DNA of 64,000 nt. It comes from a virus. Positions 17,150-45,325 of the stretch are shown here, in pieces. Numbering within the stretch: position 1 is the first letter of the stretch; every line of letters begins with the position of its first letter. The stretch spans positions 18,256-82,255 of the IMG/VR virus record IMGVR_UViG_3300037502_002391. One strand, 5' to 3'. The translations under genes and the position numbers were made by a program. The notes below the pieces were generated by a model. That model ran no database searches. It saw only the letters and a list, made by a program, of their open reading frames with translations, and was not told where the DNA came from.

Positions 17150-18208
17150 TTATCTGATATGTGAATTTATTCCAGCATTGCTATCAGAATTATATATCAA
17201 TTCACAACATTTACATGTATTTATTGCTGCTGAAATAATTCTTATTAGATTTTTTTGCTCAATTTTAGTAGAACATCCATTTGAATTAGTTTGCAAATCA
17301 ATATTATTGATTATTGATGTTGTAACACCTGTCAATGTATCCCCACTGATTAGTGTTGTGTTATATGTCAAAGCAGTATATGAACCAATATTTAGACTTG
17401 GTGAACAATAAGGTCTTGATTCATTTTTTGTTGTAACACTAGTTGTTGTAGGTGTTAATCCTGAAGTATTTTTATATACTGATATTGTATTTAGTGTTGA
17501 TGCTGATCCAGGTTGTGATGTTATTGTCTGCAAATTTGCATTCAATCCAATTGTTAACACATCCCCTGTTTTAAGTGGGGGATCAATAGTCAAATTCCAG
17601 GTTGTTTGAATTGTATCATTGGATATATTTGTTTGTGATATATTCTCAAGATTTAAAGCATATTGGTTTACTGTGCCATCAAATTCAACTGAAAATATTT
17701 TTGATGTTGTTACAGATGTATTTGCTGATGCAATAATATTATAATCACCTCCACATAAATTGCTAAATATTGGATTTGGTGTATATGTAACTCCATTATT
17801 TATGGAATACAAATATGGCTTTGTTTGCCCCTTGGCATTGGCCACAATGATACCATCACAATTTGATGAGCAAGTATTGTTTGTTACGGTTGCATTCAAT
17901 ACAAGGGGTGTATATGCCCCACAAGTGCCTGATGTAACAATCACCTCATTCTTGGGGATTTTGCCAATCAATTTCCAGTTTGATATTGGAAAATCTGTTT
18001 CAGTTTGACTTCTTAATGCTGAATTTGTTGTTCCTGTCCAATTTGTAATTTCCCAATATGTATTCCCTGAATTCCATTGCATATTCATTGCATTAGCAGA
18101 ATTCACCCAATATGGTTTTCCATTTGTTGTACCACTATGAACAAAGTTATAAGGCCCCAATTCATCATTTTCAAAAAAAATACTCAAACATAAATCACTA
18201 ACTGCCAT
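17150..18208 (-). CDS. structural protein with SprB-like repeat
   Basis: VTNNTCSSNCDGIIVANAKG..PYLYSIN..FSNLCGGDYNI; S/T/N-rich. Confidence 0.6.
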   Translation of the reverse strand: MAVSDLCLSIFFENDELGPYNFVHSGTTNGKPYWVNSANAMNMQWNSGNTYWEITNWTGTTNSALRSQTETDFPISNWKLIGKIPKNEVIVTSGTCGAYTPLVLNATVTNNTCSSNCDGIIVANAKGQTKPYLYSINNGVTYTPNPIFSNLCGGDYNIIASANTSVTTSKIFSVEFDGTVNQYALNLENISQTNISNDTIQTTWNLTIDPPLKTGDVLTIGLNANLQTITSQPGSASTLNTISVYKNTSGLTPTTTSVTTKNESRPYCSPSLNIGSYTALTYNTTLISGDTLTGVTTSIINNIDLQTNSNGCSTKIEQKNLIRIISAAINTCKCCELIYNSDSNAGINSHIR

Positions 18209-18210
18209 AA

Positions 18211-29004: not shown

Positions 29005-29970
29005 TTATTCTATACTATTTATTATTGTTAATTGACAACCATACTCTTCAGTATTATTAAGAGACACATTGCTAGTTGCACCCCCAATTGCTAAACTACA
29101 ATTTGATGAACCAGATCCAATTGTTCCACCACCTAAACTTTGCCTTGGACACAATAATCCTGTCCTAGAAGACCATATTGAACCATCATAGTCTTCAGTA
29201 CAACTAAGCATACTCCCATTTGTACCACCATAAGCAACTCCATCAAATTCATATCCAGAGGATGCTAAACATTCCCTAGCTGTTATTAATACACCACCAG
29301 ACGCCCATGATGTACCATTAAATTCTTCAGTACATGATACATAAGCATTAGTAAAACCACCTGTAACCATAGCTTGGGTTGGTACTCCAACACCAGTTAA
29401 ACTTCTTCTAGCTGTAATCATTGCAGTACATGTGGACCAAGCATTACCATTATATGCTTCATTACATGATACATTAACATTAGTAAAGCCACCAGCAAAA
29501 TAAGCTGAATTTTGTGCACCAGCACCTGCTGCTAATGATCTCCCATTAATTAATATCCCACCATTAGTCCATGTTGCACCATTATATTCTTCAACACACC
29601 TAAGCGAAGGATTACCACCAATTGCTAAACCTAAATTTTGAGTCCCAGCACCTCCTAAACGTGACCTAGCAGTTATTAATGCACCACCAGATGCCCATGT
29701 TGACCCATTATATTCTTCAGTACATGAGAGGTTAACATTTGTATATCCACCTATTGATAATCCTGCATTTTGTTGCCCGCCTCCGGCTAAACGTCTTCTA
29801 GCAGTTATTAATGACCCTCCTGTAGTCCATATTTTTGATGTAGATGTGCCACAATATGAAAAAACTGGTCTTTTATTAGTAGTATCAAACCACATACAAA
29901 CAGTATCTGTGCATATTGTTGCTGGTCTATTTGCCACTCCAACTATTTCTGTGCTTTGTAATTTTGCCAT
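29005..29970 (-). CDS. Kelch-like beta-propeller virion protein, paralog 2
   Basis: Same repeats and N-terminus as paralog 1. Confidence 0.75.
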   Translation of the reverse strand: MAKLQSTEIVGVANRPATICTDTVCMWFDTTNKRPVFSYCGTSTSKIWTTGGSLITARRRLAGGGQQNAGLSIGGYTNVNLSCTEEYNGSTWASGGALITARSRLGGAGTQNLGLAIGGNPSLRCVEEYNGATWTNGGILINGRSLAAGAGAQNSAYFAGGFTNVNVSCNEAYNGNAWSTCTAMITARRSLTGVGVPTQAMVTGGFTNAYVSCTEEFNGTSWASGGVLITARECLASSGYEFDGVAYGGTNGSMLSCTEDYDGSIWSSRTGLLCPRQSLGGGTIGSGSSNCSLAIGGATSNVSLNNTEEYGCQLTIINSIE

Positions 29971-29976
29971 AATATT

Positions 29977-30990
29977 TTAATGATAATTATCTCTTATACC
30001 TGTTGCTGTTTTTGTAAATTCCTCTGTATTAGAACTTGAACCTGTGTTAGATTGCCCACCAGCAACTAAACCAGAACTATCTGAACCAGCACCACCTAAA
30101 AAAGTTCTTGCTGTTGAAATTGCTGCACTTGCTGTTGACCATACCAATCCATTATATTCTTCGGTACATGTACATCTTGTACCAGATGAAAAATGAACAC
30201 TATCTCCACCACCAACAACAACTGCTGTATATCTTTGACCAAATCCAGTAAGACCTGTCCTAGATGTTATTAAAGAACCACCAACACACCAAGACACACC
30301 ATCATATTCTTCAGCAATTGCTGTAATAGTAGGTGTAAGACTTCCACCAGCAAAAAGTGCTTGATTTTGTGTTCCAATTTCTGCTCCACTAGATCTTGCA
30401 GTTATTAATGAACCACCTGCTGACCAAGATGTCCCATTATATTCTTCAGTACATGATAAAGCATTTGTTGCCCCCACGCTTACATTTGTTGAGCCCCCAG
30501 TAGCTAATCCAACATTTTGTGAACCAACAACACCAAGTGTATTTCTTGCTGTTATCAATGCACCACCAGATGCCCATGTTGTACCATTATATTCCTCAGT
30601 AACACTCAAAACACTTACTGAACAAACACCTCCACCAGTTGCTAACCCTTCATTTTGTGTCCCTGCTGAACCTAAAAAACCTCTTGCACATATCATATTA
30701 CCACCAGCAGCCCATGATGTTCCACCATATTCTTCAGTAGAATTATATACTTGTGTTGTTCCAGTTGACCCCCCCATAGCCAAAGCTAAATTTTGTGTTC
30801 CAGTTGCACTTAATGAAGCCCTAGCAGTAATCATTGTACCACCAGCAGCCCAAGTACCACCAGTAAACCCTGAATATGATACAACAAATCTATCACAAGT
30901 TGTATTAAACCACAAACACATTGTATTTGCACATATTGTTGCAGGTCTATTTGCTACTCCAACTATTTCTGTACTTTGTAATTTAGCCAT
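29977..30990 (-). CDS. Kelch-like beta-propeller virion protein, paralog 3
   Basis: Same repeats and N-terminus; TATTTATA box upstream. Confidence 0.75.
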   Translation of the reverse strand: MAKLQSTEIVGVANRPATICANTMCLWFNTTCDRFVVSYSGFTGGTWAAGGTMITARASLSATGTQNLALAMGGSTGTTQVYNSTEEYGGTSWAAGGNMICARGFLGSAGTQNEGLATGGGVCSVSVLSVTEEYNGTTWASGGALITARNTLGVVGSQNVGLATGGSTNVSVGATNALSCTEEYNGTSWSAGGSLITARSSGAEIGTQNQALFAGGSLTPTITAIAEEYDGVSWCVGGSLITSRTGLTGFGQRYTAVVVGGGDSVHFSSGTRCTCTEEYNGLVWSTASAAISTARTFLGGAGSDSSGLVAGGQSNTGSSSNTEEFTKTATGIRDNYH

Positions 30991-31004
30991 AATGAACTAT
31001 ATAT

Positions 31005-31012
31005 TATAAATA
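31005..31012 (-). promoter_or_regulatory. TATTTATA box, candidate late promoter
   Basis: 14 nt upstream of ATG at 30990. Confidence 0.6.
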
Positions 31013-31022
31013 TACTCAAATA

Positions 31023-31844: not shown

Positions 31845-32475
31845 ATCTTCCAAATATAATTTCAGAAATTGTTTCTTTATCCCCCAATGTTCCTTTTGTT
31901 AAAGCATTCACACCTAATGCTTTCCTTACTCTATTTGTTCTATTTGGTGGAACTCCATGTGTTAGCCAAGATGGAAATATTATAAAATCATTCTTTTTTG
32001 GTGAAAAATATACCTCTTCTTGTGAAAATAAATGATTTTGATAATCATCAAGTAATGATGGTTCAAAATATGATCTATTAAATGATTTTACTTCTTTAGA
32101 AAAACATATGGCAGCATCATCCTCATGAGCATCATAATAAAAAACACCTGCTAGAATTGTGTTTGGATGTGTATGTGCTTTATGAATTTGTCCTGGTTTT
32201 TTATATGTCAACCATGATTGAGCAAATTGTAAATCTTTATAATTATATCTCATAACATTTGTTGCAAATTCTTTAAAACAAGACATAAAAAATAAATTTA
32301 AGTCATCACATATTGGATTGTCCAATATGTAACTATTTTTTGATATCATACCATACCCATGACCTGTTTCAGACATTTCACAACTATCAAAATAATTAAT
32401 AACATCATCTATGTTCCCACCATAATTTTTAACATATAATGGTGTTGGGAATAGTGAAAAAACTTGTGCATCCAT
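31837..32475 (-). CDS. putative 2OG-Fe(II) oxygenase (TIGR02466-like)
   Basis: LFPTP, SW, HTHPNT, GVFY, IFPSWLTHGV, R.ALGVN. Confidence 0.85.
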   Translation of the reverse strand: MDAQVFSLFPTPLYVKNYGGNIDDVINYFDSCEMSETGHGYGMISKNSYILDNPICDDLNLFFMSCFKEFATNVMRYNYKDLQFAQSWLTYKKPGQIHKAHTHPNTILAGVFYYDAHEDDAAICFSKEVKSFNRSYFEPSLLDDYQNHLFSQEEVYFSPKKNDFIIFPSWLTHGVPPNRTNRVRKALGVNALTKGTLGDKETISEIIFGRYA

Positions 32476-33071
32476 TATTTATCTTTTGGTACAAAATTAA
32501 ACGCAATTGAAATCCTTTCTCCATCTGAATTGTTGGTTTCAACATGATGCCTTACCCAACTTGGGAATATATAAAATAAAGATTCTATTGGTTTTTTAAT
32601 AGCACCAAATGAATTTGATTTTGTTGTTATTCTTTCCACATCAGATTTTAAAAAATATTCCGCAGTATCTCCTCTATGAAGAACTAAATCACCCATATCA
32701 CTAAAAGGTACTGAAACATAGTAAACACCAGATAAAATACTACTCTGGTGATCATGCTCCAAATTATAATTTCCCTTTTGATTGATGTTAACCCAAAAAT
32801 TACCTAATTTTAAATTTGGAACACCAATGTGTTTATAACAATTCTCATTAACAAAAATTTCAAGATTATTAAATAAATTTAATAATTCCTTTGGTAAAGG
32901 TAAAACAATATCACTACTATGCCAACCACCTCTATTTGATATTGTTGCACCTTTTGTATTTTCTTTTAACCATAAACAATATTCCTTAATTTCCTCATTG
33001 TTTATGTCTTTTACTTCAGATTCCCATATTGGTGTTGAGAACCATAATTCTTCATGTGTTATAATTTTCAT
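32475..33071 (-). CDS. putative 2OG-Fe(II) oxygenase (TIGR02466-like)
   Basis: SNRGGWHS, WVNIN, HDH, SGVYYV, FPSWVRHHV, RISIAFN; probable start at 33071. Confidence 0.88.
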   Translation of the reverse strand: MKIITHEELWFSTPIWESEVKDINNEEIKEYCLWLKENTKGATISNRGGWHSSDIVLPLPKELLNLFNNLEIFVNENCYKHIGVPNLKLGNFWVNINQKGNYNLEHDHQSSILSGVYYVSVPFSDMGDLVLHRGDTAEYFLKSDVERITTKSNSFGAIKKPIESLFYIFPSWVRHHVETNNSDGERISIAFNFVPKDK

Positions 33072-33649
33072 ATATCTATATGTGTGAACCAACCAGTTAA
33101 TATATATTTTGTTTGCGTGGGAGATGAAACTCCTCTATGCAAATGTGTCCAATCAGATGGCCATATCAATAACTTTCCTCTTTCTGGTGATTCAAAATGT
33201 TGTTGATAAAAAAATTCTGTTTCACCTCTATCTGTTAATGTATTCAAATATATCATCCAAACTAAAAGTCTATCAGAATGTTTTTTCCCAGCTCTTTCAC
33301 AATGCCAACCAAGAAAACCCTCATTTGGTTCATATTTTTGCATATTAAAATAGGCATATAAATCAATTGGATCCATCTTTTGCATTGCTGTTGAATGTCT
33401 ATTTAAATAATCTAATACACCATTTTTAACTGTAATAACAACCTCATCCAATAACATACCCCAAGGTTCTTTATTTAAGAAAGATGGGTCAAATGTTATG
33501 TCTGTTGATTTTTTATCACTATCAGATGATATACCTGTTGGACCATATAAAACACCTGGTTTTTTTAAATCTGATTGTTCAAATGCATTAATCAAATTAT
33601 GGCAAGTATTTATAGATAAAGCATTTTCTTTACGATATATGAAATTCAT
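33068..33649 (-). CDS. 2OG-Fe(II) oxygenase, prolyl 4-hydroxylase-like
   Basis: QKYEP..GF..WHCE, WMIYLN, GETEF, WP..WTHLHRG, KYILTGW. Confidence 0.88.
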   Translation of the reverse strand: MNFIYRKENALSINTCHNLINAFEQSDLKKPGVLYGPTGISSDSDKKSTDITFDPSFLNKEPWGMLLDEVVITVKNGVLDYLNRHSTAMQKMDPIDLYAYFNMQKYEPNEGFLGWHCERAGKKHSDRLLVWMIYLNTLTDRGETEFFYQQHFESPERGKLLIWPSDWTHLHRGVSSPTQTKYILTGWFTHIDI

Positions 33650-33652
33650 ATA

Positions 33653-34336
33653 TTAATTAAGTTTGTTTTTTTTATCTTCTGGTAATTCACCCAAAAAATT
33701 TAATATTCTACCCTCACTATCTTTTAATCTATTAAAAGAAAGATATGGACCCATTGCATTCATAATATCTCCAGGTGAGGATGAATCATTCAAAGATTTA
33801 ACTCTATTTTCAAAATATTTATGTAATGAATCTGCTTGATGTGTGTTGACATCTTTGGTATCAAAAGAACCATTATCTAATTCACCTTTAATTTTACTCC
33901 ATAAGGTCAACTCTCTAACTCTATCTTTAGCAACTTGTAACATACAACTTCTATCATATAGATTCCTATCCAAATCAATATGAGCATCCATTATATCAAA
34001 TTTATTATTTTCTTCATCTTGCATTAAATCATCTATTTTTTTGTCAAGTCTTAACTTTTCAACTGTATTCTTCCTTAAATCAAAAGTAAGATTCATTAAT
34101 GCATCAAAATGAGCAGACATTTCTCTAACAGATTGCCAATATTTTGAGGCAATTGTAGGATGTTTTGCATCATTTAAAACTGAAAACCTCATTTCAGTTT
34201 CAGTTCTAAAAATTTGTTTTTTATGCCAATTGTCAACTAATTCATCTTTTAGTGTTAGAATAGTGTTAACATCTTCTTCATTTAGAATGCTAATAATTTC
34301 TTTTAAATCTTCATTAAATTGTAATTCTTTTTTCAT
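33653..34336 (-). CDS. hypothetical coiled-coil protein
   Basis: Probable start MKKELQF at 34336; helical, charged. Confidence 0.65.
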   Translation of the reverse strand: MKKELQFNEDLKEIISILNEEDVNTILTLKDELVDNWHKKQIFRTETEMRFSVLNDAKHPTIASKYWQSVREMSAHFDALMNLTFDLRKNTVEKLRLDKKIDDLMQDEENNKFDIMDAHIDLDRNLYDRSCMLQVAKDRVRELTLWSKIKGELDNGSFDTKDVNTHQADSLHKYFENRVKSLNDSSSPGDIMNAMGPYLSFNRLKDSEGRILNFLGELPEDKKNKLN

Positions 34337-34346
34337 ATATTTTTTT

Positions 34347-34598
34347 TTAAGGTAAAATAACTTGTGGTGGATTTTGCTGTTCATTGTTTGATGGTGGTTG
34401 ATAAGATTCTGCAATTGCAGCATCAACAATTGCTTGTGCTTCTTCTTTTGTCTTTTCTACAGCACCAATTCTTTGTGGCCATATAGTATTTTCTGTTACC
34501 CATATATTTCCTGGATAACCAGAAATATGTGCAAGTTCATTGTCTTCATGGGTTATAAACCCATGACCATAGTTAATAGCATAATAATATTTTAACAT
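34347..34598 (-). CDS. small hypothetical protein, possible fibre chaperone
   Basis: Probable start MLKYY at 34598; first gene of the oxygenase/sulfotransferase run. Confidence 0.55.
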   Translation of the reverse strand: MLKYYYAINYGHGFITHEDNELAHISGYPGNIWVTENTIWPQRIGAVEKTKEEAQAIVDAAIAESYQPPSNNEQQNPPQVILP

Positions 34599-34657
34599 AC
34601 TAAGTTTTTTATAAAAAAAAATAAACACTTATAATCATAAGTAAATACTAACATAAT

Positions 34658-35182
34658 TTAAATAAATTCAACCCATCTAGCATTTTCCCTTGTAACACCA
34701 CTAATACCTTCAATTGATGATCCTGTCCAAGCATTTAATAGCAAAGCACCATCAACTGTATTGTCATAAACTTGATATCCAAAATAAATATCCACAACTG
34801 ATCCACCAGTTAATGCATTATTAAATAATGTTTCATAATTTGGTATTTGATATTGATATGTTTTGTTATTTTCACAAACATATGCAATCATGCCAAGTTT
34901 TCTTCTTCCAGAAGAAATACCATCTGAATATAGATTTATAACATTTGGTGAACCATTTGGTGCATTATAACTAAAATCAATAGGAATTGTATTTCCTGAA
35001 TATAATACTGTTCCTGTTGTCCCATTTGGTATAGTAAAATTCAAATCACTTAATTTAAATACTTCACAAAATCCACCAACTTGGAATGAACTAAAATTGC
35101 TTCCAGTATTTGAATCAGTATTAACTGAATTTGGTCCAGATAATACAACTGATGATTTTGGATTTTTATAATTAAAGCTCAT
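34658..35182 (-). CDS. putative structural protein
   Basis: S/G/N-rich, RRKLGMIAYV..KTYQY; TATTTATA box upstream. Confidence 0.6.
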   Translation of the reverse strand: MSFNYKNPKSSVVLSGPNSVNTDSNTGSNFSSFQVGGFCEVFKLSDLNFTIPNGTTGTVLYSGNTIPIDFSYNAPNGSPNVINLYSDGISSGRRKLGMIAYVCENNKTYQYQIPNYETLFNNALTGGSVVDIYFGYQVYDNTVDGALLLNAWTGSSIEGISGVTRENARWVEFI

Positions 35183-35192
35183 TAATTTATTC

Positions 35193-35200
35193 TATAAATA
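35193..35200 (-). promoter_or_regulatory. TATTTATA box, candidate late promoter
   Basis: 10 nt upstream of ATG at 35182. Confidence 0.55.
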
Positions 35201-35225
35201 TATGTTATTTTATTTTAACCATAAA

Positions 35226-38200
35226 TTAAACTGTGGTAAATGTGATTGTTGTTGTTGCTGTTATTTTATAAATGGTTGATGTTCCAACTTGTGTTACATT
35301 TGTCCCTATTACTCTATATCCATTTGGGACTTGTATGAATGCAACACCTGCCCCACCATTACAAGGGTTATTTGGACTTAATTGGGTTGAACCTCCTCCT
35401 CCATGATTAGAAATTGTAGGACATCCACAAAAAGCAAGAGATGTACTATTAGTTTTATTAACTCCACAACCACCAACGCCATAAATAGATATGGTTGAAT
35501 CAAGTGGAAGTGAAATTCCACCCTCACCAAAATATGTAGTAGGTTGTATAGAATAACCAGCTCCACCACCACTATTTTGTGAATTTATATTCACAAAATT
35601 ACCTGTTGCTCCTGAATAGTTTTGGCAACTGCTCTTTGAACCCCCACCTAAACTACCTAATCTACTTGCACCACCACCACCAAATCCAATTCCACTACCA
35701 CAAACACCTTCAATACCAACTGAACGACCACCACCACCACCAGCAGCAGATAATATCACATTACTACTTGTATCATATAATGTTGTTGTTCCACCAGTAC
35801 CACCAGGATCACAAAAACTTGAAGAGCCTGCACCTGCTGTGCCAATTATAATTGAGTGACTTGTATTTGTTAATACTGAAATACTATTTCCTGTTGCAAT
35901 ACAACCACCAGCACCTCCACCACCAAAATAACCACCAGATAAATCCCCATCAGATTTTCCACCTCCACCACCTCCACCAACAAGGTTGACATTTATGTTT
36001 ATTGAACAATTGGTACTTCCTGTTATTGCACCTGATGAATTAAAACCATAGCAAGTTCCACTTACTGAAAATATCCTTTCAGTTCCCCAAGCAGAAGTAT
36101 CATTATTGTTACATGATGTTAGTGATGGATAATAAATAGAACCATTTGAACTATTGAATGTAGAATATCTACCTACTACATAATTACTAGCCAAACAAGC
36201 TGTGCTACAATTGTTTAAACCACCAAGATCCCTACCTGCTCCAAATACTTTACAAGCAGTCAAGTTTGTTGGTGTGGTTGTTGGTGTGGTTGTTGGTGTG
36301 GTTGTTGGTGTGGTTGTTGGTGTGGTTGTTCTTGTATTAGTTGGTGTAGTGGTATTAGTCATTGTTTGAGTTGGTGTTGTTGTTGGTGTTCTTGTTGGTG
36401 TTAATGTTCTTGTTGGTGTTATGGTTGGAGTTGCAGTAGTTGATGGTGTTTGTGTTGGTGATGGTTGAGTAGGGCATGTTGTTACACTATCTATAACATT
36501 ATAAGCAAATAATCCAACATTTGGATCCCTAGACCATTCATAACAGGCAAAATCATCTGTAAATGTATTTGCTGATTCTCCATTATTTGCAAATGCTAAA
36601 TGATTAATATCACTATAATCATTCAAACAATTAATCTCAGAATTAACATCATTGTCAGAATAGTAAACTTTATCATTTATAGATAATGCACCTGAACTTT
36701 TTCTAACATATGCTGTAAATGTTGCACCACTTGCTGGACAACCATAAGTACAAGTAGCAGGTGTATTTGATGAAGCTCTAAAAGTCCTTGCATAACAGAA
36801 AATTGGTGTTGGTGTTGGTGTTGGTGTTCCTGTACTTGTTGGTGTTGTTGAAGGTGTGACTGTGTTTGTTGGCGTAACTGTATTTGTTGGTGTTGTTGTC
36901 CTTGTTGGTGTAACTGTATTTGTTGGTGTAACTGTATTTGTTGGTGTATTACTAGGTGTTGGTGGTATAGTTGGGCAACTAACTTCTATTTGAAATGTAC
37001 CATTAGGTTCATTAGTTGTAACTTGAACTATTACAGTAGTTGGCTCATTTAATGTTTTTGTAAAACTATTCTGGTATAATCCAGTGAATGTTCCTGAACT
37101 AATTACATTGGTAGAATTCCATGTTACTAAAACTGTAGTATTTACATTACTACTACAAATAACATTGATATTTCCTGTATTTAATCCAACATTATATGTG
37201 TATATATGATATGCTTTTGTTCCACCACTATTAATGATTGAAGTATTACAAACTCCAGTATAATTAATTGTTGCATATATTGTTGGTGTAGGTGTGTTTG
37301 TTGGTGTTACTGTATTTGTTGGTGTTATTGTGTTTGTTGGTGTAGATGTTTTTGTTGGTGTTATTGTGTTTGTTGGTGTAATTGTATTTGTTGGTGTTAT
37401 TGTATTTGTTGGTGTAATTGTATTAGAAGGTGTATTTGTTGGTGTTATTGTTCTTGTTGGTGTTATTGTGTTTGTTGGTGTTATTGTATTAGAAGGTGTA
37501 TTTGTTGGTGTAATTGTATTTGTTGGTGTTATTGTTCTTGTTGGTGTAATTGTATTAGAAGGTGTATTTGTTGGTGTTATTGTTCTTGTTGGTGTTATTG
37601 TATTAGAAGGTGTATTTGTTGGTGTTATTGTGTTTGTTGGTGTTATTGTATTAGAAGGTGTATTTGTTGGTGTTATTGTGTTTGTTGGTGTAATTGTATT
37701 AGAAGGTGTATTTGTTGGTGTTATTGTTCTTGTTGGTGTTATTGTGTTTGTTGGTGTAATTGTATTAGAAGGTGTATTTGTTGGTGTTATTGTATTAGAA
37801 GGTGTATTTGTTGGCGTTATTGTATTTGTTGGTGTTATTGTGTTTGTTGGTGTAATTGTATTAGAAGGTGTATTTGTTGGTGTTATTGTTCTTGTTGGTG
37901 TTATTGTGTTTGTTGGTGTAATTGTATTAGAAGGTGTATTTGTTGGTGTTATTGTATTAGAAGGTGTATTTGTTGGCGTTATTGTATTTGTTGGTGTTAT
38001 TGTGTTTGTTGGTGTAGATGTTTTTGTTGGTGTTATTGTGTTTGTTGGTGTATTTGTTGGTGTTATTGTGTTTGTTGGTGTAGATGTTTTTGTTGGTGTT
38101 ATTGTGTTTGTTGGTGTAATTGTATTTGTTGGTGTTATTGTATTTGTTGGTGTAATTGTATTAGAAGGTGTATTTGTTGGTGTTATTGTTCTTGTTGGTG

Positions 38201-38543
38201 TTATTGTGTTTGTTGGTGTTATTGTATTAGAAGGTGTATTTGTTGGTGTAATTGTAACAGTAGGAGTAATAGTTGTTGTTGGTGTAATAGTTACAGTAGG
38301 TGTTGGTGTTTTTGTTGGTGATGGTGTAATCATAGGATCAATCAACTGAAATCCACATGATTTATTTATAGATGAAAAGTATAAATCATATATACCATAA
38401 TAATACCCATCAACATTTGAATAAAAATATGGTAAAATAGCATTATTTATTATTCTAGTTCCACCAGTTTCAGGATAAAATGTAATTGTTGAATTATACC
38501 CAGAATAATTTAAAGTATCTATATATAGAACATTACTAGCCAT
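35226..38543 (-). CDS. mucin-like Thr/Pro-repeat fibre protein with C-terminal glycine-rich domain
   Basis: About 350 aa of [10 protein letters not shown] repeats, further PT linkers, Cys-rich modules, C-terminal VGGGGGGG...GGGGAGG domain. Confidence 0.8.
37280..38325. repeat. coding minisatellite of 18-bp (TITPTN) and 12-bp (TPSN) units
   Basis: tttgttggtgttattgtg and ttagaaggtgta units repeated dozens of times. Confidence 0.95.
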
Positions 38544-38579
38544 TTTTCATATTTTAAACTTTATAAATTTATAACAACA

Positions 38580-38587
38580 TATAAATA
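38580..38587 (-). promoter_or_regulatory. TATTTATA box, candidate late promoter
   Basis: Intergenic, 36 nt upstream of ATG at 38543. Confidence 0.45.
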
Positions 38588-38613
38588 TGTAATAACACAT
38601 AAATTATATTAGA

Positions 38614-39009: not shown

Positions 39010-39019
39010 ATAATTTAAT

Positions 39020-42000
39020 TTAGAATTGTATATTTCCTGTTCCAGCATTAATCTGATAAACTTTAAATCCTGAAGGTGTGTAGGATGCTGCAACTCTTGT
39101 TCCATTTCCACTTGTATCAACACCTGATGAATTTCTATATGTTAAACCAGAACCAATTAAAAGGTCAGGATATGTATTTGCATATTTTATAATAAGGACA
39201 CCAGAACCACCAGAACCACCAGTAGTGAAAACTCTTTCAGCGCCACCACCTCCACCACCTCTATTGGCAGTTCCACTTTGAGCAGCTAAAGGTCCTCCAT
39301 TTCTACCAATACCACCATCACCACCTCCACCATTACCACCAAGACCTTTGGTTGTTCCTGTATTATCATCATAGCAAGATCCACCTCCACCACCAGCATA
39401 ATATGTTGCAGTTCCAGTAATACTAGATTCTTGACCAATACCACCATCACCAGCCTTAGAACCAGTACCCCCAATACCATTTGAACCTTTACCACCTCCA
39501 CCACCAGACCCATATGCAGGTACATTAAATGTCCCACCACCACCTGTATTGCCTTCCCCAGATATACCTGTTCCTGGTAGTCCATAATAACCAGAACCAC
39601 CACCTGAACCACCAGTTGATCCATTTACTTCTTGTCTTCCACCAGCACCACCACCAGTTGTTGATATGGTACTAAAAGATGATGCACTACCATTAGCAGC
39701 AGAGCCACCCCCACCACCAATAGTCACTGAATAATTTGTGTTTTGAGCAAAAACAACACCACTATTACTTTTCATGCCACCAGCACCACCACCACCACCG
39801 TGATATTGACCAAAACCACCACCACCACCACCAGCAACAATTAAATATTCAATAATAGTTGCATTACTTGTTGGTGTTATTGTCATTGTTGGTGTTATTG
39901 TCCTTGTTGGAGTATTTGTTGGTGTTATTGTTCTTGTTGGTGTTATTGTGTTTGTTGGTGTTATTGTGTTTGTTGGTGTTATTGTGTTTGTTGGTGTTAT
40001 TGTGTTTGTTGGTGTAATTGTGTTAGAAGGTGTATTTGTTGGTGTTATTGTGTTTGTTGGTGTTATTGTGTTTGTTGGTGTTGGTGTTGGTGTTGGTGTT
40101 GGTGGAATTATAAAATTAGTGCCTCCTGAAATAGTCAATAGTGGAGAACTAACTACAACTGAATTCCCATATATTGTAATACTTTCACCATATAAAGGTG
40201 ATTGTAAATTATTTTGTTCATTATTCCAACAATCAATATAACTATATGTTTCATAACAAGGATTTGTACATCCAGTATTTGTTATAATATATTCTGCACA
40301 TGCTACAATTATATTACCATTAACATCACATAGTGGGTATTCTGTGCTAGTTGGTGTATTTGTTGGTGTTATTGTGTTTGTTGGTGTTATTGTATTAGAA
40401 GGTGTATTTGTTGGTGTTATTGTGTTTGTTGGTGTTATTGTGTTTGTTGGTGTTATTGTATTTGTTGGTGTTATTGTACTAGTTATTGTTTGGGTAGGTG
40501 TTGGTGTTTGAGTAGATGTTGGTGTTTCTGTTGGTGTTATTGTGTTAGTAGGTGTAGATGTATTTGTTGGTGTTATTGTGTTTGTTGGTGTTATTGTGTT
40601 AGTAGGTGTAGATGTATTTGTTGGTGTTATTGTGCTTGTTGGAGTTATTGTATTAGAAGGTGTGTTTGTTGGTGTTATTGTGTTTGTTGGTGTTATTGTG
40701 TTTGTTGGTGTTATTGTGTTTGTTGGTGTTATTGTACTAGTTATTGTTTGGGTAGGTGTTGGCGTTTGTGTAGGTGTTGGCGTTTGTGTAGATGTTGGTG
40801 TTTCTGTTGGTGTTATTGTGTTAGTAGGCGTGTTTGTTGGTGTTATTGTGTTTGTTGGTGTAATTGTATTTGTTGGTGTTATTGTGTTTGTTGATGTTAT
40901 TGTGTTTGTTGGTGTTATTGTGTTAGTAGGTGTAGATGTATTTGTTGGTGTAATTGTATTTGTTGGTGTTATTGTGTTTGTTGATGTTATTGTGTTTGTT
41001 GGTGTTATTGTGTTAGTAGGTGTAGATGTATTTGTTGGTGTAGATGTATTTGTTGGAGTTATTGTACTAGTTATTGTTTGGGTAGGTGTTGGTGTTTGAG
41101 TAGATGTTGGTGTTTCTGTTGGTGTTATTGTGTTAGTAGGTGTAGATGTATTTGTTGGTGTAGATGTATTTGTTGGAGTTATTGTACTAGTTATTGTTTG
41201 GGTAGGTGTTGGCGTTTGTGTAGATGTTGGTGTTTCTGTTGGTGTTACTATTGGTGTTACTGTATTAGAAGGTGTGTTTGTTGGTGTTATTGTGTTAGTA
41301 GGTGTCATTGTGCTAGTAGGTGTCATTGTGCTAGTAGGTGTTGGCGTTATTGTAACACAAACTGATGCTCCTGTTATTGTACCTCCTGAGTTTGTAGAAT
41401 AACAATACCCACTTCTATTGAAACTTGTACTAATACCCCAAGTATTAGTATTATTATTAATACAAGATTCAAAATCAATATAATATGTTTGACCAATAGA
41501 ACCATCAAATAATGTTGTTTTTCCACATATTTGTGTGTTTGGTTCTTCGCTACATACATCAGCACAATTTAATAATCCTGTGGAATCAACATAAACATCA
41601 AAACAATTGCATCCATTTGGATCTGGAATCAAGGAATTTCCTCTAAAATATATCTTATTATTGTTATTTATTAATCTAAAATTTGTATTGCTAAATGTTG
41701 TATATACATGATAAAAATCTTGTGGAATAGTAAAACCTGAATATTCAACTGTTAGTGAAGCATATGTCATATTCATATTAACTGGAACTAATGCCAAAGG
41801 ATCACTATATTCATTAACCCCTATATTGCTAACAAGATTTCTATTTGTATTTAAATTTGGAATTACCCAAGTGTACCAAGAATAACCTGTTGTGGTATAT
41901 TCTGGTACTTCATGTGTCTTAAATAAATATGCTTGTATAAAATTACCATACTCATCAAGTCCACCACTATTCTGACTTATTTTTGCTGTTCTAATTTGTG

Positions 42001-42616
42001 GTGCAGTAACACCCCAACCAGAGAATGATATATATCTATTTAATTCATCATTAAATGTTGTTGCACTTATGGATGGACCAATACCATTTGAAAATCCTCT
42101 AAACATACCAGAACTAGCACTCATCCAATTGCTAAAATCAGTATTTAAACTAACTGGTTCAATAAATAAATAAGCATCAAGTTCTTCTGGTGTTGTTGGT
42201 GTTATAGTTGGTGTTATAGTTGGTGTTGGAGTCTTTGTTCTTGTTACAGTTGGAGTTGGTGTTAATGTTCTTGTTGGTGTTACTGATGGTGTTTTTGTGT
42301 TTGATGGTGTTATAGATATAGTTGGTGTTATAGATGGTGTTATAGATATAGTTGGTGTTATTGTTGGAGTTGGTGTTGGAGTTGTGCATTGTAATTCAAT
42401 TACAACCCCTGCTAATAATTCATTTCTTGATACATTCTCATATATCGGTGTGCTATTTGTTGAATCAACATAAATGTTAAATGGACCTTTTGAGTTAGAT
42501 GATGGACTTAATTGAAATAAATACCTTGAACAAGCAGTAATACCTGTTATTTCACTCTCAATACTATTTACACATATTGGGTCAGTATTTATTACAAATA
42601 TTGTATAATCTACCAT
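39020..42616 (-). CDS. mucin-like Thr/Pro-repeat fibre protein with C-terminal glycine-rich domain
   Basis: Probable start MVDYT at 42616; long [16 protein letters not shown] tracts; C-terminal EYLIVAGGGGGG..GGSGVLIIKY domain. Confidence 0.8.
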   Translation of the reverse strand: MVDYTIFVINTDPICVNSIESEITGITACSRYLFQLSPSSNSKGPFNIYVDSTNSTPIYENVSRNELLAGVVIELQCTTPTPTPTITPTISITPSITPTISITPSNTKTPSVTPTRTLTPTPTVTRTKTPTPTITPTITPTTPEELDAYLFIEPVSLNTDFSNWMSASSGMFRGFSNGIGPSISATTFNDELNRYISFSGWGVTAPQIRTAKISQNSGGLDEYGNFIQAYLFKTHEVPEYTTTGYSWYTWVIPNLNTNRNLVSNIGVNEYSDPLALVPVNMNMTYASLTVEYSGFTIPQDFYHVYTTFSNTNFRLINNNNKIYFRGNSLIPDPNGCNCFDVYVDSTGLLNCADVCSEEPNTQICGKTTLFDGSIGQTYYIDFESCINNNTNTWGISTSFNRSGYCYSTNSGGTITGASVCVTITPTPTSTMTPTSTMTPTNTITPTNTPSNTVTPIVTPTETPTSTQTPTPTQTITSTITPTNTSTPTNTSTPTNTITPTETPTSTQTPTPTQTITSTITPTNTSTPTNTSTPTNTITPTNTITSTNTITPTNTITPTNTSTPTNTITPTNTITSTNTITPTNTITPTNTITPTNTPTNTITPTETPTSTQTPTPTQTPTPTQTITSTITPTNTITPTNTITPTNTITPTNTPSNTITPTSTITPTNTSTPTNTITPTNTITPTNTSTPTNTITPTETPTSTQTPTPTQTITSTITPTNTITPTNTITPTNTITPTNTPSNTITPTNTITPTNTPTSTEYPLCDVNGNIIVACAEYIITNTGCTNPCYETYSYIDCWNNEQNNLQSPLYGESITIYGNSVVVSSPLLTISGGTNFIIPPTPTPTPTPTNTITPTNTITPTNTPSNTITPTNTITPTNTITPTNTITPTNTITPTRTITPTNTPTRTITPTMTITPTSNATIIEYLIVAGGGGGGFGQYHGGGGGAGGMKSNSGVVFAQNTNYSVTIGGGGGSAANGSASSFSTISTTGGGAGGRQEVNGSTGGSGGGSGYYGLPGTGISGEGNTGGGGTFNVPAYGSGGGGGKGSNGIGGTGSKAGDGGIGQESSITGTATYYAGGGGGSCYDDNTGTTKGLGGNGGGGDGGIGRNGGPLAAQSGTANRGGGGGGAERVFTTGGSGGSGVLIIKYANTYPDLLIGSGLTYRNSSGVDTSGNGTRVAASYTPSGFKVYQINAGTGNIQF
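40345..41350. repeat. coding Thr/Pro minisatellite with higher-order duplicated blocks
   Basis: TPTETPTSTQTPTPTQTITSTITPTN block recurs four times among TITPTN units. Confidence 0.92.
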
Positions 42617-42617
42617 T

Positions 42618-43169
42618 TCAACAATCAATTATTTTAAAATAACTACAAGAATTGGAATCCTTGATTGTTATTATTATTTGTTCTGCACCATCAAATATTG
42701 TTGGAACTCCTATTGTTGCTGGTAATGAACTTGTATTTATAATGGTTGCCACATAAGTTTCATAATTGCCATTTATATCTGATATATAAACACTTAAAGG
42801 TGTTGATCCAGTTAAACCATTTAAAGTGATTGTGTTATTTGTTGTTGGTGTTGGTATATATCCTGGGGTTGCAGATGGGGTTGGGGTTGGTGTTGGTGTG
42901 ATTGATGTAATATCTGTAATATTATATATAATATCACAATTTATATAGCAATTAAACTTTTTTGTTATTCTACAACCTATATTATCTTGTACTATTATTG
43001 ACACTTGTGGTGCAAGATGAAAGATTTCTGGTAAATCAAATGAAACCTCCCCTACTATGGGTAAAGTGCTTATCTGACCCAAATATGCCTCATTTCCACC
43101 AAATGCATCAGCAACATAAATGCTCAAAGGTGTACTTCCACTCAAACTTGTAAATACAACTCTTGTCAT
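42618..43169 (-). CDS. small structural protein with internally duplicated beta domain and PT linker
   Basis: LSGSTPLSIYVAD and LTGSTPLSVYISD halves; probable start MTRVV at 43169. Confidence 0.7.
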   Translation of the reverse strand: MTRVVFTSLSGSTPLSIYVADAFGGNEAYLGQISTLPIVGEVSFDLPEIFHLAPQVSIIVQDNIGCRITKKFNCYINCDIIYNITDITSITPTPTPTPSATPGYIPTPTTNNTITLNGLTGSTPLSVYISDINGNYETYVATIINTSSLPATIGVPTIFDGAEQIIITIKDSNSCSYFKIIDC

Positions 43170-45325
43170 ATAGTACAACTAATATCATATGTTATCTTCA
43201 AGTTTATGGTCAATGCCTGTGAGGTTATACTATCGCCTGGAATTGCTATGATGTTTATTGTATTTGTTATTAAATCATATGATACACTATCTATTCCTGG
43301 TATTCCCCCAACTAAACTAACTATTGAATCAACATATACTGAATCTGTTGGAACATCTGTTCTTGTATATCCTGTGTAGAATGCATTTGTGCCTGTAATT
43401 CCACTTGGCTCTAATGTGTATTCTGTTGTGAATATTGCTGAATTTAAATTACATTTTGGATTTGTTATGGTGGTTGATCCACTAAACTCCATATTCACCA
43501 AATCACTAAATCCCTCATTCAAGAAATCTAGTAACCCAAAGTTATTTAATGGTTGTAATGCAAATGTTTGTGAATCCACAACATATATTTTATATGATGT
43601 ATTTATGCTAAAGCAATTTATGGATGTTTCTCTTGTTAATGTACAACCATTAGCATCTTGTAATGTTAAACTATAATTACCACTTGTTAATCCTGTTGCT
43701 ACTATGTATTGTGGATTTCCAGTTACATTACTTGACCAAGTGAATGTAAATGGGGGTACTCCTTCAGTTATAAGTGCTGTGATTGTTGCATCATTACCAT
43801 TCACACAAGATGTGGGATATAATGAAAAATCAATTCCATTACTAGATGTTAATTGTATCACATCTCTTTGTTCACATCCACTTGCATCAACAACTCTTAA
43901 TTCATATTGACCTTCTTGTAAATTTTGAAATGTTACACCTGTTAAATTTGTATCAATTATTGATATTGTATTCAAATAATAATCATATGGTGGTGTTCCA
44001 CCTGTACTTATATATGCAAATATACTCCCATTATTTGAACTACAAGTTGTTCCAGTTATAGAATACCCTAATGTGAATTTATCCTCTGCTATAATTGTTA
44101 CCTCTTTGTCATAATAACAACCTGTAGAATCTTGCATATAAGCAGTATAAGTTCCACTAGATAAATTATCAAATATGTAATTTGTAGTTGTTGTATTTAT
44201 TGTTGTAGTATCCCCACTTGGCCCTATTAATCCATAGGTATATGGACCAGTTCCGCCAACTAAACTAATATCAATTAGTCCATTTGATGATGAACATATT
44301 GAATTTGTTCCATTTATGGAAACAGATGAAACTCCATTGTCACTATCCAAACTTGTGAATATTGAATACTCACATAGTGCAGCATCTTTAACTAGTATTT
44401 CATATGAACCAGATGTTAATCCAGTCATTATAAAATTATTACTATAGGTTATATCATAATATCCAGTATTTGCTGAATAATAGAATGGTGCTGTTCCCCC
44501 ACTTATGGTTATATCCAATGCACCACTAGCAGTAAAACATGATGGTTGTGTTGGTATTATATTAACAAGACCAATTGTTGATGCATTATTTATTTCAATA
44601 GATTTTGTTAATGTGCAACCTTCCCCATCTGTAACACTTACAGAATATGTTCCAGCTGATAAATTACTTAATGTATTGCCTGTTGAACCATCATTCCAAA
44701 AATAAGTATATGGTCCAGGATTTGTCTGTCCTGTTATATATATCTTTCCAGTATTTCCACTAAAACAAGGGGAAGCATTTATTGTATAAAATCCATAATC
44801 AAAAGTTGTTGATGACTTTATTATAAAACTTTCTGTTTTTGCTGTACATCCACCAAGATCCTCAACATATATGTAATATGTATCTGCACTCAAATTTTCA
44901 AAAACAATAAACTCTGAATTAAATATATTGTTTGATATTAATGTATCACCACTTGTATATAAATAACAATCTGTTGTTGAAAAATAAGAGTTTGTGGTTG
45001 CTGTAACTGAACCATTTGCATCTCCACATAATGTATCTAATGTTGATAGAATTGTTCCACAACATCCACTTGAAACTGGTATATTTACAAAAAATTCTAG
45101 GTTCTCACTCAATGTTGAATCATTCAACCTAACCCCATATGTTGTGGCTGATAATCCTGTTTGAAGAATAGGAAAATCCTCTGTTGTTATAGTCACACCC
45201 AAATCAGGCTCAACCCATTCAATGGTATATGGAGGTGTACCCCCACTCAAAGATAATGATATAGCACCTACATTTGTGTTTGAACAATCACCGGTTACGC
45301 TTAAAAAATAATCAAATGCTGCCAT
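43166..45325 (-). CDS. SprB-repeat structural protein
   Basis: About 7 repeats of C...G.I......GG..PY.Y....L..G.Y...V.D..GC. Confidence 0.82.
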   Translation of the reverse strand: MAAFDYFLSVTGDCSNTNVGAISLSLSGGTPPYTIEWVEPDLGVTITTEDFPILQTGLSATTYGVRLNDSTLSENLEFFVNIPVSSGCCGTILSTLDTLCGDANGSVTATTNSYFSTTDCYLYTSGDTLISNNIFNSEFIVFENLSADTYYIYVEDLGGCTAKTESFIIKSSTTFDYGFYTINASPCFSGNTGKIYITGQTNPGPYTYFWNDGSTGNTLSNLSAGTYSVSVTDGEGCTLTKSIEINNASTIGLVNIIPTQPSCFTASGALDITISGGTAPFYYSANTGYYDITYSNNFIMTGLTSGSYEILVKDAALCEYSIFTSLDSDNGVSSVSINGTNSICSSSNGLIDISLVGGTGPYTYGLIGPSGDTTTINTTTTNYIFDNLSSGTYTAYMQDSTGCYYDKEVTIIAEDKFTLGYSITGTTCSSNNGSIFAYISTGGTPPYDYYLNTISIIDTNLTGVTFQNLQEGQYELRVVDASGCEQRDVIQLTSSNGIDFSLYPTSCVNGNDATITALITEGVPPFTFTWSSNVTGNPQYIVATGLTSGNYSLTLQDANGCTLTRETSINCFSINTSYKIYVVDSQTFALQPLNNFGLLDFLNEGFSDLVNMEFSGSTTITNPKCNLNSAIFTTEYTLEPSGITGTNAFYTGYTRTDVPTDSVYVDSIVSLVGGIPGIDSVSYDLITNTINIIAIPGDSITSQALTINLKITYDISCTI

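Follow-up and report, generated by a model that had tools for sequence, protein, structure and literature searches.

Two mobile enzyme modules lodged in the tail-fibre locus of a T4-like jumbo phage may tailor its own fibres

The window analysed here is a 64,000-nucleotide stretch of viral DNA from a source record of 82 kb that is 27% complete. Its part 17150-45325 is best explained as the hypervariable tail-fibre (host-recognition) locus of a T4-like jumbo phage, uncultured and low in GC. Conserved structural genes enclose the locus, which lies downstream of the baseplate wedge. From 14945 to 48313, genes are on the minus strand unless stated otherwise. The left border of the hypervariable region is a 728-aa structural core protein (14945..17131) with 323 relatives in viral contigs; in many of these, homologues of 43166, 45329 and 48313 are found at less than 10 kb. 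The right border is a conserved 994-aa structural protein (45329..48313), downstream of baseplate-wedge genes, for which PHROG matches were obtained at 59121-60956 and 60958-61434. Just inside the left border lie two fibre-type proteins (17150..19311), one of 352 aa that weakly matches SprB and one of 366 aa with a C-terminal Fib_succ_major domain (Pfam), whose homologues in the nearest relatives (L045/L046) are 77-78% identical. A 468-aa fibre protein with Thr/Pro (PT) linkers, the f19316 family, follows at 19316..20722. On the right, the stretch 42618..45325 encodes, by profile matches, a PT-linker protein of 186 aa and a virion protein of 719 aa; the latter (43166-45325) carries SprB repeats and a 'virion structural protein' PHROG. 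An earlier, sequence-only reading had called the flanking genes virion-type, and the baseplate-wedge, virion PHROG, SprB and Gly_rich_2 matches agree with it. In the nearest relatives the genes that flank the 20.7-38.6 kb block are adjacent: the homologue of a small conserved phage protein (38614..39123; phrog_7759) sits directly beside that of f19316. No membrane segments are predicted in any enzyme or fibre of the region.

Two giant fibres contain long arrays of the hexapeptide TITPTN, as judged by repeat count and profile. The first (35226..38543; 1105 aa) has ~56 TITPTN units and the second (39020..42628; 1202 aa) ~60 TITPTN-type units; both end in Gly_rich_2 and consist of 25-27% Thr. The corresponding 18-nt arrays comprise ~56 copies at 37280-38243, ~47 copies at 40355-41185 and ~14 copies at 39868-40100, and shorter PT linkers occur at 19316-20722 and 42618-43178. 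The hundreds of Thr/Pro repeat residues noticed earlier are thus real. Homologues of the 1202-aa fibre, 83-84% identical, are present in two contigs (L042/L043) that stop inside the repeats. For the TITPTN arrays the best reading is that of extended spacer stalks, common in the clade with or without such enzymes.

Module A (21065-27176, plus strand) consists of three genes that move as a unit, conserved together in ~35 viral contigs with varied genome contexts. Profile matches divide the 906-aa product of gene 1 (21065..23785) into a GT4 domain (PF00534, E 2.5e-13), a middle domain and an FkbM O-methyltransferase (TIGR01444, 86.9 bits against a cut-off of 37.7). The middle domain is perhaps GT8/GT-A-like, the weak leads being an invariant WxDGD motif and a match to a GT8 cluster with an Atlas score of 0.87. 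Gene 2 (23776..24444) encodes a 222-aa protein that is weakly Methyltransf_24-like, below threshold (22.3 bits against 26.3), and kept within the cassette at 45-57% identity. The 908-aa product of gene 3 (24450..27176) joins an N-terminal class-I SAM methyltransferase (PF13489, 33.8 bits), a middle domain known in phages only, and a C-terminal BAHT domain (TIGR04414, Aah/TibC O-heptosyltransferase; 290.6 bits against a cut-off of 200). This C-terminus (residues 543-907, aligning with TibC 18-382) is classed as a true TibC/Aah-type BAHT, an equivalog-level family member. It keeps the catalytic Asp-110, Thr-226, Lys-230, Trp-305 and the iron-finger Cys-339/342/358/370. Arg-286, the sugar-binding residue that TibC needs for activity, is Ile here and varies among phage homologues, so that a sugar other than heptose may be the donor; of 13 BAHT-positive records, only 2 have GmhA-like genes. 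BAHT substrates known so far are proteins only (PMC4358343).

Module B (27169-34628), whose enzymes have counterparts of 76-86% identity in other phage contigs, includes a 293-aa protein, GT9L (27169..28050). An HMM search gave no match for GT9L, and its GT9 fold is that of a predicted structure (AlphaFold AF2, pLDDT 85; Foldseek 3TOV, E 6e-10; TibC, TMq 0.65), with LPS heptosyltransferases WaaC and WaaF among the best structural matches; hhalign relates it to the phage BAHT domain (E 1.4e-4). It has Lys at the position of the BAHT catalytic Asp and therefore may not be a canonical transferase. Next come three paralogous six-bladed propellers of 304, 321 and 337 aa with a common 20-aa N-terminus (28089..30990). 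Propellers had been proposed from sequence, and they can now be named Kelch-type (family profile against solved Kelch domains, E 1e-17; all-beta model, pLDDT 89). In relatives the same Kelch domain forms the tip of long fibres with collagen-like stalks and a Peptidase_S74 chaperone domain; in one contig (L243), a 1316-aa protein of collagen repeats, Kelch and Peptidase_S74 chaperone adjoins both module B and a BAHT gene.

A PAPS-type sulfotransferase (31023..31853; PF13469, E 3e-16; PF00685) is followed by two 2OG-FeII_Oxy_5/TIGR02466 oxygenases by Pfam/TIGRFAM, OxB and OxA (31837..33092, divided into 31837-32475 and 32475-33092), whose only solved family relatives, 3BVC and 2RG4, are both uncharacterised. 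A family match identifies a 2OG-FeII_Oxy_3 (P4H-type) oxygenase at 33068..33649. APS kinase genes are present in 6 of 8 complete relatives, and in G014 and L025 such a gene adjoins the sulfotransferase, which makes a supply of sulfate donor plausible. Two proteins, u227 (~227 aa, all-alpha, phrog_1409) and s80 (~80 aa; together 33653..34628), accompany the propellers more constantly than any others and are possibly assembly factors. A 174-aa protein (34658..35182), in relatives the N-terminal domain of long fibres, heads an operon that runs into module B. Profiles and the GT9L model bear out the GT4, BAHT, GT9-like, sulfotransferase and three 2OG-Fe(II) oxygenase assignments made from sequence. 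Four glycosyltransferase and three methyltransferase domains had been counted: GT4, BAHT and the GT9 fold stand, as do FkbM and the class-I enzyme, but the GT-A-like domain depends on the weak leads given above and the third methyltransferase is the sub-threshold 222-aa protein.

Does module B share expression signals with the virion genes? At a distance of 15-40 nt, the motif TATTTATA precedes baseplate genes as well as GT9L, the propeller operon, the operon at 34658 and one PT fibre; of its 17 sites, 8 lie in the stretches immediately before starts, which make up 4.6% of the sequence (P=3e-7). Common to baseplate genes and module B, it is promoter-like. In module A, TATTTATA is absent in the sense of the genes.

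The region is a mosaic, with two separately mobile enzyme modules lodged inside the fibre locus. The gene set of module B is found in at least 10 different orders, and of 29 loci recovered by a search seeded with OxA (at least 45% identity), 27 have Kelch, s80 and u227; the oxygenase-Kelch linkage is found from either seed, propeller or oxygenase. Exceptions are some propeller loci without enzymes, and GT9L plus sulfotransferase without propellers in G007, G011 and G014. Where module B occurs elsewhere its propellers are just 50-59% identical, and this pattern of conserved enzymes next to fast-diverging fibre tips fits enzyme-substrate pairs. In relatives, the BAHT cassette is partnered with proline-free collagen-like (G-S/T-S/T)n fibres, not with PT repeats. 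Among 21 related records, 13 have both BAHT and such a fibre gene, none has BAHT alone, one has the tract alone (a contig that stops within the tract) and seven have neither; these and the other co-occurrence counts are raw, with kinship ignored, and G009, G010 and G019 are near-identical. The sole (G-S/T-S/T)n genes of G006, G007 and G009 lie within a few kb of the BAHT cassette. The tract is absent from the present 82-kb record (27% complete), so that the expected partner of module A is missing here.

Could the whole island instead be one pathway acting on the Thr/Pro 'mucin-like' tracts, as the sequence-only reading had it? Hydroxyproline would be made by the P4H-type enzyme, O-glycans placed on Hyp, Thr or Ser by the glycosyltransferases, and methylation and sulfation would complete a stiff glycocalyx or a glycan mimic, the latter perhaps open to capture through SusD/TonB systems. 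PT-rich fibres do physically flank the enzymes, a sulfotransferase and GT9L lie between PT fibres in L066/G011, and in the clade of the 728-aa protein BAHT genes often abut the PT-linker family, a recurrent neighbour in relatives (BAHT adjoins an f19316 homologue in L187, L193-L201, L080 and G009). There is also the precedent of chlorovirus PBCV-1, whose P4H acts on proline-rich repeats of the virus itself. In a comparison of 80 related fibre loci, however, the amount of PT tract is not associated with enzyme presence (Mann-Whitney p=0.67). A 99% complete genome (G013) carries the longest PT tract, with 1681 residues within a single ORF, and no BAHT, sulfotransferase or GT9L; relatives of this kind are what the sequence-only reading itself had named as refuting it. 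In G014, PT residues number more than 500, and BAHT and P4H-type genes are both absent. Conversely, G006 has the cassette and a P4H-type gene, and no PT tracts. In relatives, P4H-type genes mostly lie well away from the fibre region, three further TITPTN fibres are scattered elsewhere in the genome of the nearest relative, and modules A and B move independently, with different partners: collagen-like fibres for A and Kelch for B. For the hydroxyproline-glycan route the argument is family membership, and the likeness of the oxygenase to solved prolyl hydroxylases is weak (E 0.16, algal P4H 2JIG). We consider a single PT-directed pathway unlikely.

A second view, that the enzymes alter the LPS or capsule of the infected cell, for example against superinfection, seems to us similarly doubtful. 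It is the published view of glycosyltransferases in the fibre island of aquatic T4-like phages (PMC7029224); GT4 and GT9 are typically envelope-glycan families, and the WaaC and WaaF matches of GT9L point the same way. In contrast, the BAHT belongs at equivalog level to a protein-modifying family, co-occurrence with specific fibre protein types is near-perfect at genome level, conserved enzymes stand beside fast-diverging fibre tips, and neither a membrane-anchored enzyme nor a flippase, polymerase or ligase is encoded in the window. That the oxygenases and sulfotransferase make or modify a small molecule (a secondary metabolite, nucleotide or DNA base), with Kelch as an unrelated neighbour, recalls the metabolite biosynthesis proposed for tandem 2OG dioxygenase arrays of cyanophages (PMC2938197) and draws on the functionally uncharacterised state of TIGR02466, but is highly improbable, as NRPS, halogenase and carrier genes are absent, the oxygenases do not belong to the Tet/JBP type, linkage with Kelch tips and s80/u227 is tight in both directions, and for operons of 2OG dioxygenase and sulfotransferase the cyanophage paper itself predicts that the substrates are proteins (tail-collar or collagen-like).

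We favour, with a probability of roughly 0.6, the reading that soluble enzymes decorate the phage's own fibres, modules A and B being two mobile fibre-tailoring modules. It is supported by the protein substrates of the BAHT family, the lack of membrane segments and the position of the enzymes inside the fibre locus of many relatives, where BAHT or GT9L-plus-sulfotransferase genes are located within the same fibre region. The earlier idea that the phage modifies its own fibres is therefore retained as the most plausible, and PT tracts as the target are not. Domain identities, mobility of the modules, patterns of co-occurrence, lack of membrane segments and the promoter-like motif are observed, whereas virion proteins as substrates, the modified residues and the sugar used are what we infer. 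By analogy with TibC/Aah, the BAHT would act in the cytoplasm and transfer a heptose-type sugar onto Ser/Thr residues in a repetitive fibre protein; extension of the glycan would fall to the GT4 and middle domains of module A, and its O-methylation to the methyltransferases. The module B oxygenases would act on proteins of the fibre tip, of which the Kelch propellers are the likeliest targets, and once hydroxylated these would be capped by the sulfotransferase and GT9-fold protein before assembly onto the baseplate.

The closest known system is TibC-TibA/Aah-AIDA-I of E. coli (TIGR04414; PDB 4RAP/4RB4; PMC4358343), to whose enzymes the phage domain corresponds as a full-length BAHT. Like TibC, it has the beta-barrel, the catalytic and other conserved residues listed above and the four-Cys iron finger; like TibC/Aah it is predicted to be cytoplasmic and soluble, and its presumed target is a protein that is rich in Ser/Thr and highly repetitive. 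Unlike bacterial BAHTs, which are stand-alone proteins of ~400 aa, it is phage-encoded and fused behind a methyltransferase and a middle domain; it has no autotransporter partner, its partner in relatives being the proline-free collagen-like fibre, and with Arg-286 not conserved its donor sugar is uncertain.

Virion glycosylation reportedly influences immune recognition of mycobacteriophages of the Che8/Corndog type, in which modification of capsid and tail-tube C-termini is said to have been shown experimentally. As here, glycosyl- and methyltransferases are encoded beside structural genes, and there the phage's own virion proteins are modified in the cytoplasm. The enzyme families differ: those here include a BAHT, 2OG oxygenases and a sulfotransferase, and the putative targets are fibres. 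Chlorovirus PBCV-1 has a GT-GT-methyltransferase fusion, A064R, as well as its prolyl-4-hydroxylase, and Mimivirus L230 is a collagen hydroxylase/glycosyltransferase. Multi-domain GT-GT-MT fusions, and a virus-encoded hydroxylase and glycosyltransferase that modify repetitive or collagen-like proteins of the viral surface, would be shared themes, but these are eukaryotic viruses, unrelated in sequence and without BAHT, sulfation module or Kelch partner. Autonomous glycosylation by giant viruses has been reviewed (PMC4691112).

Module B resembles the bacterial operons predicted by Iyer et al. 2010 (PMC2938197), in which 2OG dioxygenases and a sulfotransferase (with or without PAPS synthetase) accompany tail-collar or collagen-like proteins: the hydroxylate-then-sulfate logic, enzyme classes and fibre-like partner are the same, and PAPS-supply genes are present in relatives. 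Those operons, likewise predictions, differ in having beta-hydroxylase and PhyH oxygenases and tail-collar or collagen-like partners, not Kelch. The locus is also like the host recognition cluster (HRC) of pelagimyophages and cyanomyophages, a large non-syntenic island of tail fibres and glycosyltransferases in the structural module of aquatic T4-like phages. Zaragoza-Solas et al. 2020 read the HRC glycosyltransferases as modifiers of the host O-chain (PMC7029224), whereas co-occurrence here points to the fibres themselves, in a separate jumbo lineage of ~270-320 kb.

What are two clusters of modifying enzymes doing among the fibre genes of a phage? The best-supported reading, to which we give a probability of roughly 60%, is that a tail-fibre locus here has taken in two mobile modules for fibre tailoring. 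Module A (21065-27176, plus strand) and module B (27169-34628, minus strand) stand side by side in the window, amid exceptionally long TITPTN fibres. The window covers bases 18256-82255 of an IMG/VR virus record of 82,255 bp, which is 27% complete (CheckV) and about 29% G+C, with nearly all genes on the minus strand. Baseplate-wedge PHROG matches lie at 59121-60956 and 60958-61434, and the 728-aa protein of 14945-17131 has 323 relatives among viral contigs, many of them in records of 270-320 kb, which places the locus among the structural genes of a jumbo phage of T4-like type. Most structural proteins have no PHROG or Pfam match, and the 994-aa protein (45329) had no match in a protein search of the phage collection. 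A ribonucleotide reductase large subunit (61856-63481) and an SbcC-like nuclease subunit (7611-9929) flank the structural block.

In many relatives the 14945 homologue lies less than 10 kb from the homologues of 43166, 45329, 48313 and 49241, so that the 26 kb between these boundaries here represent variable content. The homologues of 38614 and of the fibre at 19316, with its Thr/Pro (PT) linker, directly adjoin in the nearest related genomes, G001 and G002 (about 80% identity); the block of 20.7-38.6 kb, comprising both modules, 34658 and the 35226 fibre, is missing at that position, and the contigs stop just beyond. The nearest relatives, G001, G002 and the contigs L042-L044, break in or near PT repeats, G001 being without the whole baseplate side, and the closely related contigs L042, L043, L045 and L046 end inside or beside PT repeats and genes for Gly-rich fibres. 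Assemblies from short reads break systematically at the fibre locus. In the nearest relative (L046:663-4910) the equivalent position is occupied by a fibre of 1416 aa that is unrelated and has Laminin_G, SPRY, DUF7483 and Gly_rich_2 domains, which illustrates wholesale fibre replacement there.

Genes of module B share an upstream motif with structural genes. Read in gene sense, TATTTATA lies 15-40 nt ahead of eight genes on the minus strand, among them genes for baseplate, fibre, propeller and GT9-like proteins; in plus-strand coordinates the sites, which read TATAAATA on that strand (TATTTATA in the sense of the minus-strand genes), are 1621, 28090, 31005, 35193, 38580, 49223, 59059 and 61450. 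Of 17 TATTTATA sites, eight lie immediately upstream of starts on the minus strand, a zone that makes up 4.6% of the sequence (P=3e-7). The motif precedes the baseplate-wedge-region genes 53949 and 60958 and the conserved structural gene 48313, as well as the GT9-fold gene GT9L, the first propeller, the 35226 fibre and 34658, the last of which heads an operon running through the module B gene u227, the oxygenases and the sulfotransferase. TATAAATA is the T4 late promoter core and the promoter-like TATTTATA its reverse complement; TATAAATA is not enriched overall, TATTTATA being the recurrent motif. No TATTTATA motif in gene sense occurs in module A.

HMM, model and repeat searches bear out the features listed in the sequence-only reading: GT4, a TibC/Aah-type protein O-heptosyltransferase (BAHT), FkbM and class-I methyltransferases, a sulfotransferase, three 2OG oxygenases, propellers and PT repeats are all present. 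The 'GT-A-like' domain is a lead only, given by an Atlas match to GT8 together with a WxDGD motif that is invariant, and the methyltransferase match of the 222-aa protein of module A falls under threshold (HMM search). The 906-aa protein of module A combines GT4 (PF00534, 50.3 bits, cut-off 26.4; PF13692, 45.8 bits, cut-off 27), with GT4 relatives in PDB, and an FkbM methyltransferase (TIGR01444, 86.9 bits, cut-off 37.7; PF05050, 69.8 bits, cut-off 22.7). The 908-aa protein joins a class-I methyltransferase to a full-length Aah/TibC heptosyltransferase domain, the equivalog HMM TIGR04414 scoring 290.6 bits (cut-off 200) over residues 543-907. The middle domains of both proteins have no Pfam or PDB sequence match, and gave Atlas leads only.

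Does the BAHT retain the hallmarks of its bacterial counterparts? Its family profile matches TibC at E 2e-76, with residues 543-907 of the 908-aa protein aligned to TibC residues 18-382. In the numbering of Yao et al. 2014 (PMC4358343), the catalytic base Asp-110 and the sugar-binding Thr-226, Lys-230 and Trp-305 are identical, and the iron-finger cysteines 339, 342, 358 and 370 are kept (CNGC...WCP...EC); all of these are invariant in 12 phage homologues. Arg-286, a sugar-binding residue whose mutation cripples TibC (PMC4358343), is Ile in the window BAHT and I, A, V, T or R among the phage homologues, and the position of TibC Pro-300 and AAH Ser-294 is occupied by Ser. Given the conserved catalytic, sugar-binding and cysteine residues on the one hand and the Ile at 286 on the other, the enzyme class is secure, whereas the donor sugar is not. 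TibC/Aah enzymes act as dodecamers with ADP-heptose on the beta-helix of an adjacent autotransporter, and the window has no autotransporter. Phage BAHTs differ from bacterial ones in that each is joined to further domains, and these combinations are shuffled. Fusions of 700-1535 aa bring together BAHT, GT4, methyltransferase and the two middle domains in many orders (L023:8804-12739 and L030:3861-6470 in related contigs; a 1535-aa ORF at G016:C1:40887-41912), implying domain shuffling within one enzyme toolkit. Literature searches turned up no paper on a phage BAHT.

About 35 viral contigs carry the three plus-strand genes of module A together, with identities of 45-65% and with flanks unrelated to those of the window. 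The flanks in relatives encode proline-free collagen-like proteins of Gly-Thr-Ser or Gly-Ser-Ser triplets. Four whole genomes were compared; in G006, G007 and G009 (256-317 kb), the sole triplet-repeat genes are found no more than a few kb from the module A cassette. In 21 related records, BAHT and a triplet tract occur together in 13, BAHT only in none, a tract only in one (G015, whose contig stops inside the tract) and neither in seven (one-sided Fisher about 7e-5, ignoring relatedness, some of the records being near-identical). A further record with a triplet tract, G026, has its BAHT 37 kb away. No triplet tract was found in this 82-kb record despite its BAHT, even by a relaxed protein-level search. 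Gly_rich_2 was considered as the BAHT acceptor and ruled out, as it does not co-occur with BAHT.

Could the Thr/Pro tracts be the substrate instead? The sequence-only reading proposed that a single enzyme pathway coats the mucin-like PT fibres with glycans. In these fibres, 18-nt tandem units encoding TITPTN number about 56 copies in the 1105-aa protein and about 60 in the 1202-aa protein, both of which end in Gly_rich_2, and the genome of the nearest relative encodes three further TITPTN fibres with Gly_rich_2 at other sites. The arrays flip the local GC skew to +0.45, and the plus-strand ORFs 37294-38349 and 40542-41099 ('VFVGVIV...') are antisense artefacts of them. The amount of PT tract does not differ between loci that have island enzymes and loci that lack them (80 related fibre loci, p=0.67). 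At 1681 residues in a single ORF (L099), the longest tract belongs to G013, a 99% complete genome with no BAHT, sulfotransferase or GT9L, in which the sole GT1-type match is weak and distant. More than 500 PT residues occur in G014, where BAHT and P4H-type genes are both absent, and G006 carries the module A cassette with an adjoining P4H-type gene and no PT tracts. In relatives, P4H-type genes do not track PT tracts. By the refuting condition that the sequence-only reading set for itself, the PT-specific part of its model fails, and we consider a PT-directed pathway unlikely.

The partners of module B are propellers. Its three Ser/Gly/Thr-rich proteins are six-bladed Kelch propellers with six repeats of about 42 aa and a GG...Y...W signature; the family profile matches solved Kelch PDB chains (E 1e-17), AF2 gives an all-beta model (pLDDT 89), and Pfam Kelch models give no match. 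At least 592 matching stretches were found in a propeller search of viral contigs. The block s80-u227-P4H-type oxygenase-OxA-OxB-sulfotransferase-propeller(s)-GT9L is found in several phage groups, its enzymes 76-86% identical to those of the window, its propellers only 50-59%, and module B genes occur in at least 10 different orders around free or fibre-fused propellers. A search seeded with an alignment of the oxygenase OxA recovered propellers, s80 and u227 again in 27 of the 29 loci that reach 45% identity; many of the more distant, short contigs likewise carry them. GT9L and the sulfotransferase are also paired where propellers are lacking: G007 and G011 have the two genes in the fibre region, and G014 has them next to an APS kinase. 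In the related contig L243, a 1316-aa protein made of collagen repeats, a Kelch propeller and the Peptidase_S74 tail-fibre chaperone adjoins module B and a BAHT gene; this fusion marks Kelch domains as fibre parts, and it means that in some relatives a single polypeptide comprises the partners of both modules.

GT9L (27169-28050, 293 aa; AlphaFold pLDDT 85) finds its best matches in GT9 enzymes and TibC (Foldseek: 3TOV, E 6e-10; TibC, TMq 0.65; also WaaF and WaaC), with no Pfam or NCBIfam match even at E<=1, so that PF01075 is absent; in hhalign a Lys (GGLGKN) takes the position of BAHT SLGD, and the N-terminal catalytic Asp of GT9 was not found. The sulfotransferase scores 60.6 bits against Pfam Sulfotransfer_3/_1 (cut-off 27). 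HMM searches identify two TIGR02466/2OG-FeII_Oxy_5 oxygenases and one 2OG-FeII_Oxy_3 oxygenase, the latter P4H-type (PF13640, 41 bits, cut-off 27), with a weak match to the algal P4H 2JIG (E 0.16). No solved relative of u227 was found.

ADP-heptose and PAPS are both made by E. coli. Of the sugar and PAPS synthesis genes that the sequence-only reading proposed to look for outside the window, GmhA-like and APS kinase genes are absent from this 82-kb record, but 6 of the 8 complete relatives encode an APS kinase, which adjoins the sulfotransferase in G014 (C1:201919-203279) and L025 (251-1906). This adjacency suggests that the phage makes its own PAPS supply. The L025 sulfotransferase also adjoins a cytidylyltransferase-like HxGH protein. 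GmhA-like genes occur in 2 of 13 BAHT-positive records, the jumbo phages G008 (C1:254288-254746) and G016 (C1:88560-89015), where these sedoheptulose-7-phosphate isomerase matches score 208 and 179 bits, just under cut-off.

If the fibres are the substrates, as we infer, one tentative chemistry would have BAHT initiate methylated stalk glycans and have Kelch tips hydroxylated, then sulfated and GT9-capped, with PAPS via a phage APS kinase. The locus also fits the host recognition clusters of aquatic T4-like phages, being a non-syntenic island in a structural module, with fibres and glycosyltransferases and with baseplate PHROGs upstream, its gene content differing among relatives. Host envelope remodelling, as proposed for such clusters (PMC7029224), is a rival reading that we consider unlikely; the proteins across 17150-45325 are soluble, none having a membrane-like segment, and the modules recur with collagen-like and Kelch partners. 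Chemistry on small molecules or DNA is very improbable beside this recurrence with fibre-type partners.

The usual explanation of phage host range is the amino-acid sequence of the fibre tip. Should the modules decorate fibres, adsorption, stability or defence evasion would also depend on a second, transferable factor, namely the sugars, methyls, hydroxyls and sulfate on the fibres; sulfated or hydroxylated receptor-binding proteins would control host range at a post-translational level that is as yet undescribed. The glycosyltransferases that abundant aquatic phages carry in their host recognition clusters may then have been misread as modifiers of host LPS, and the BAHT, of a virulence-associated enzyme family, would be the first at work outside autotransporters. 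The closest published ideas include the TibC/Aah systems and, reportedly, mycobacteriophage virion glycosylation. Autonomous glycosylation in giant viruses (PMC4691112) is likewise close, as is the prediction by Iyer et al. 2010 (PMC2938197) of 'hydroxylate then sulfate' chemistry on tail-collar and collagen-like proteins.

In the propellers, the segment 'EEYNG' was considered as a tyrosine-sulfation site and dropped, being simply the structural Kelch signature. Kelch paralogues within one phage are nearly identical over an N-terminal stretch of about 20-40 aa (window 28089-30990; L184-L241), which differs by phage lineage: MAKLQSTEIVGVANRPATIC, MSTYYQIFGGKINV..., MTTFKEIRGTAIQS..., MPLPSSGQISFSQLA... 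In L243, the same C.WFDT.N junction joins the collagen stalk to the propeller.
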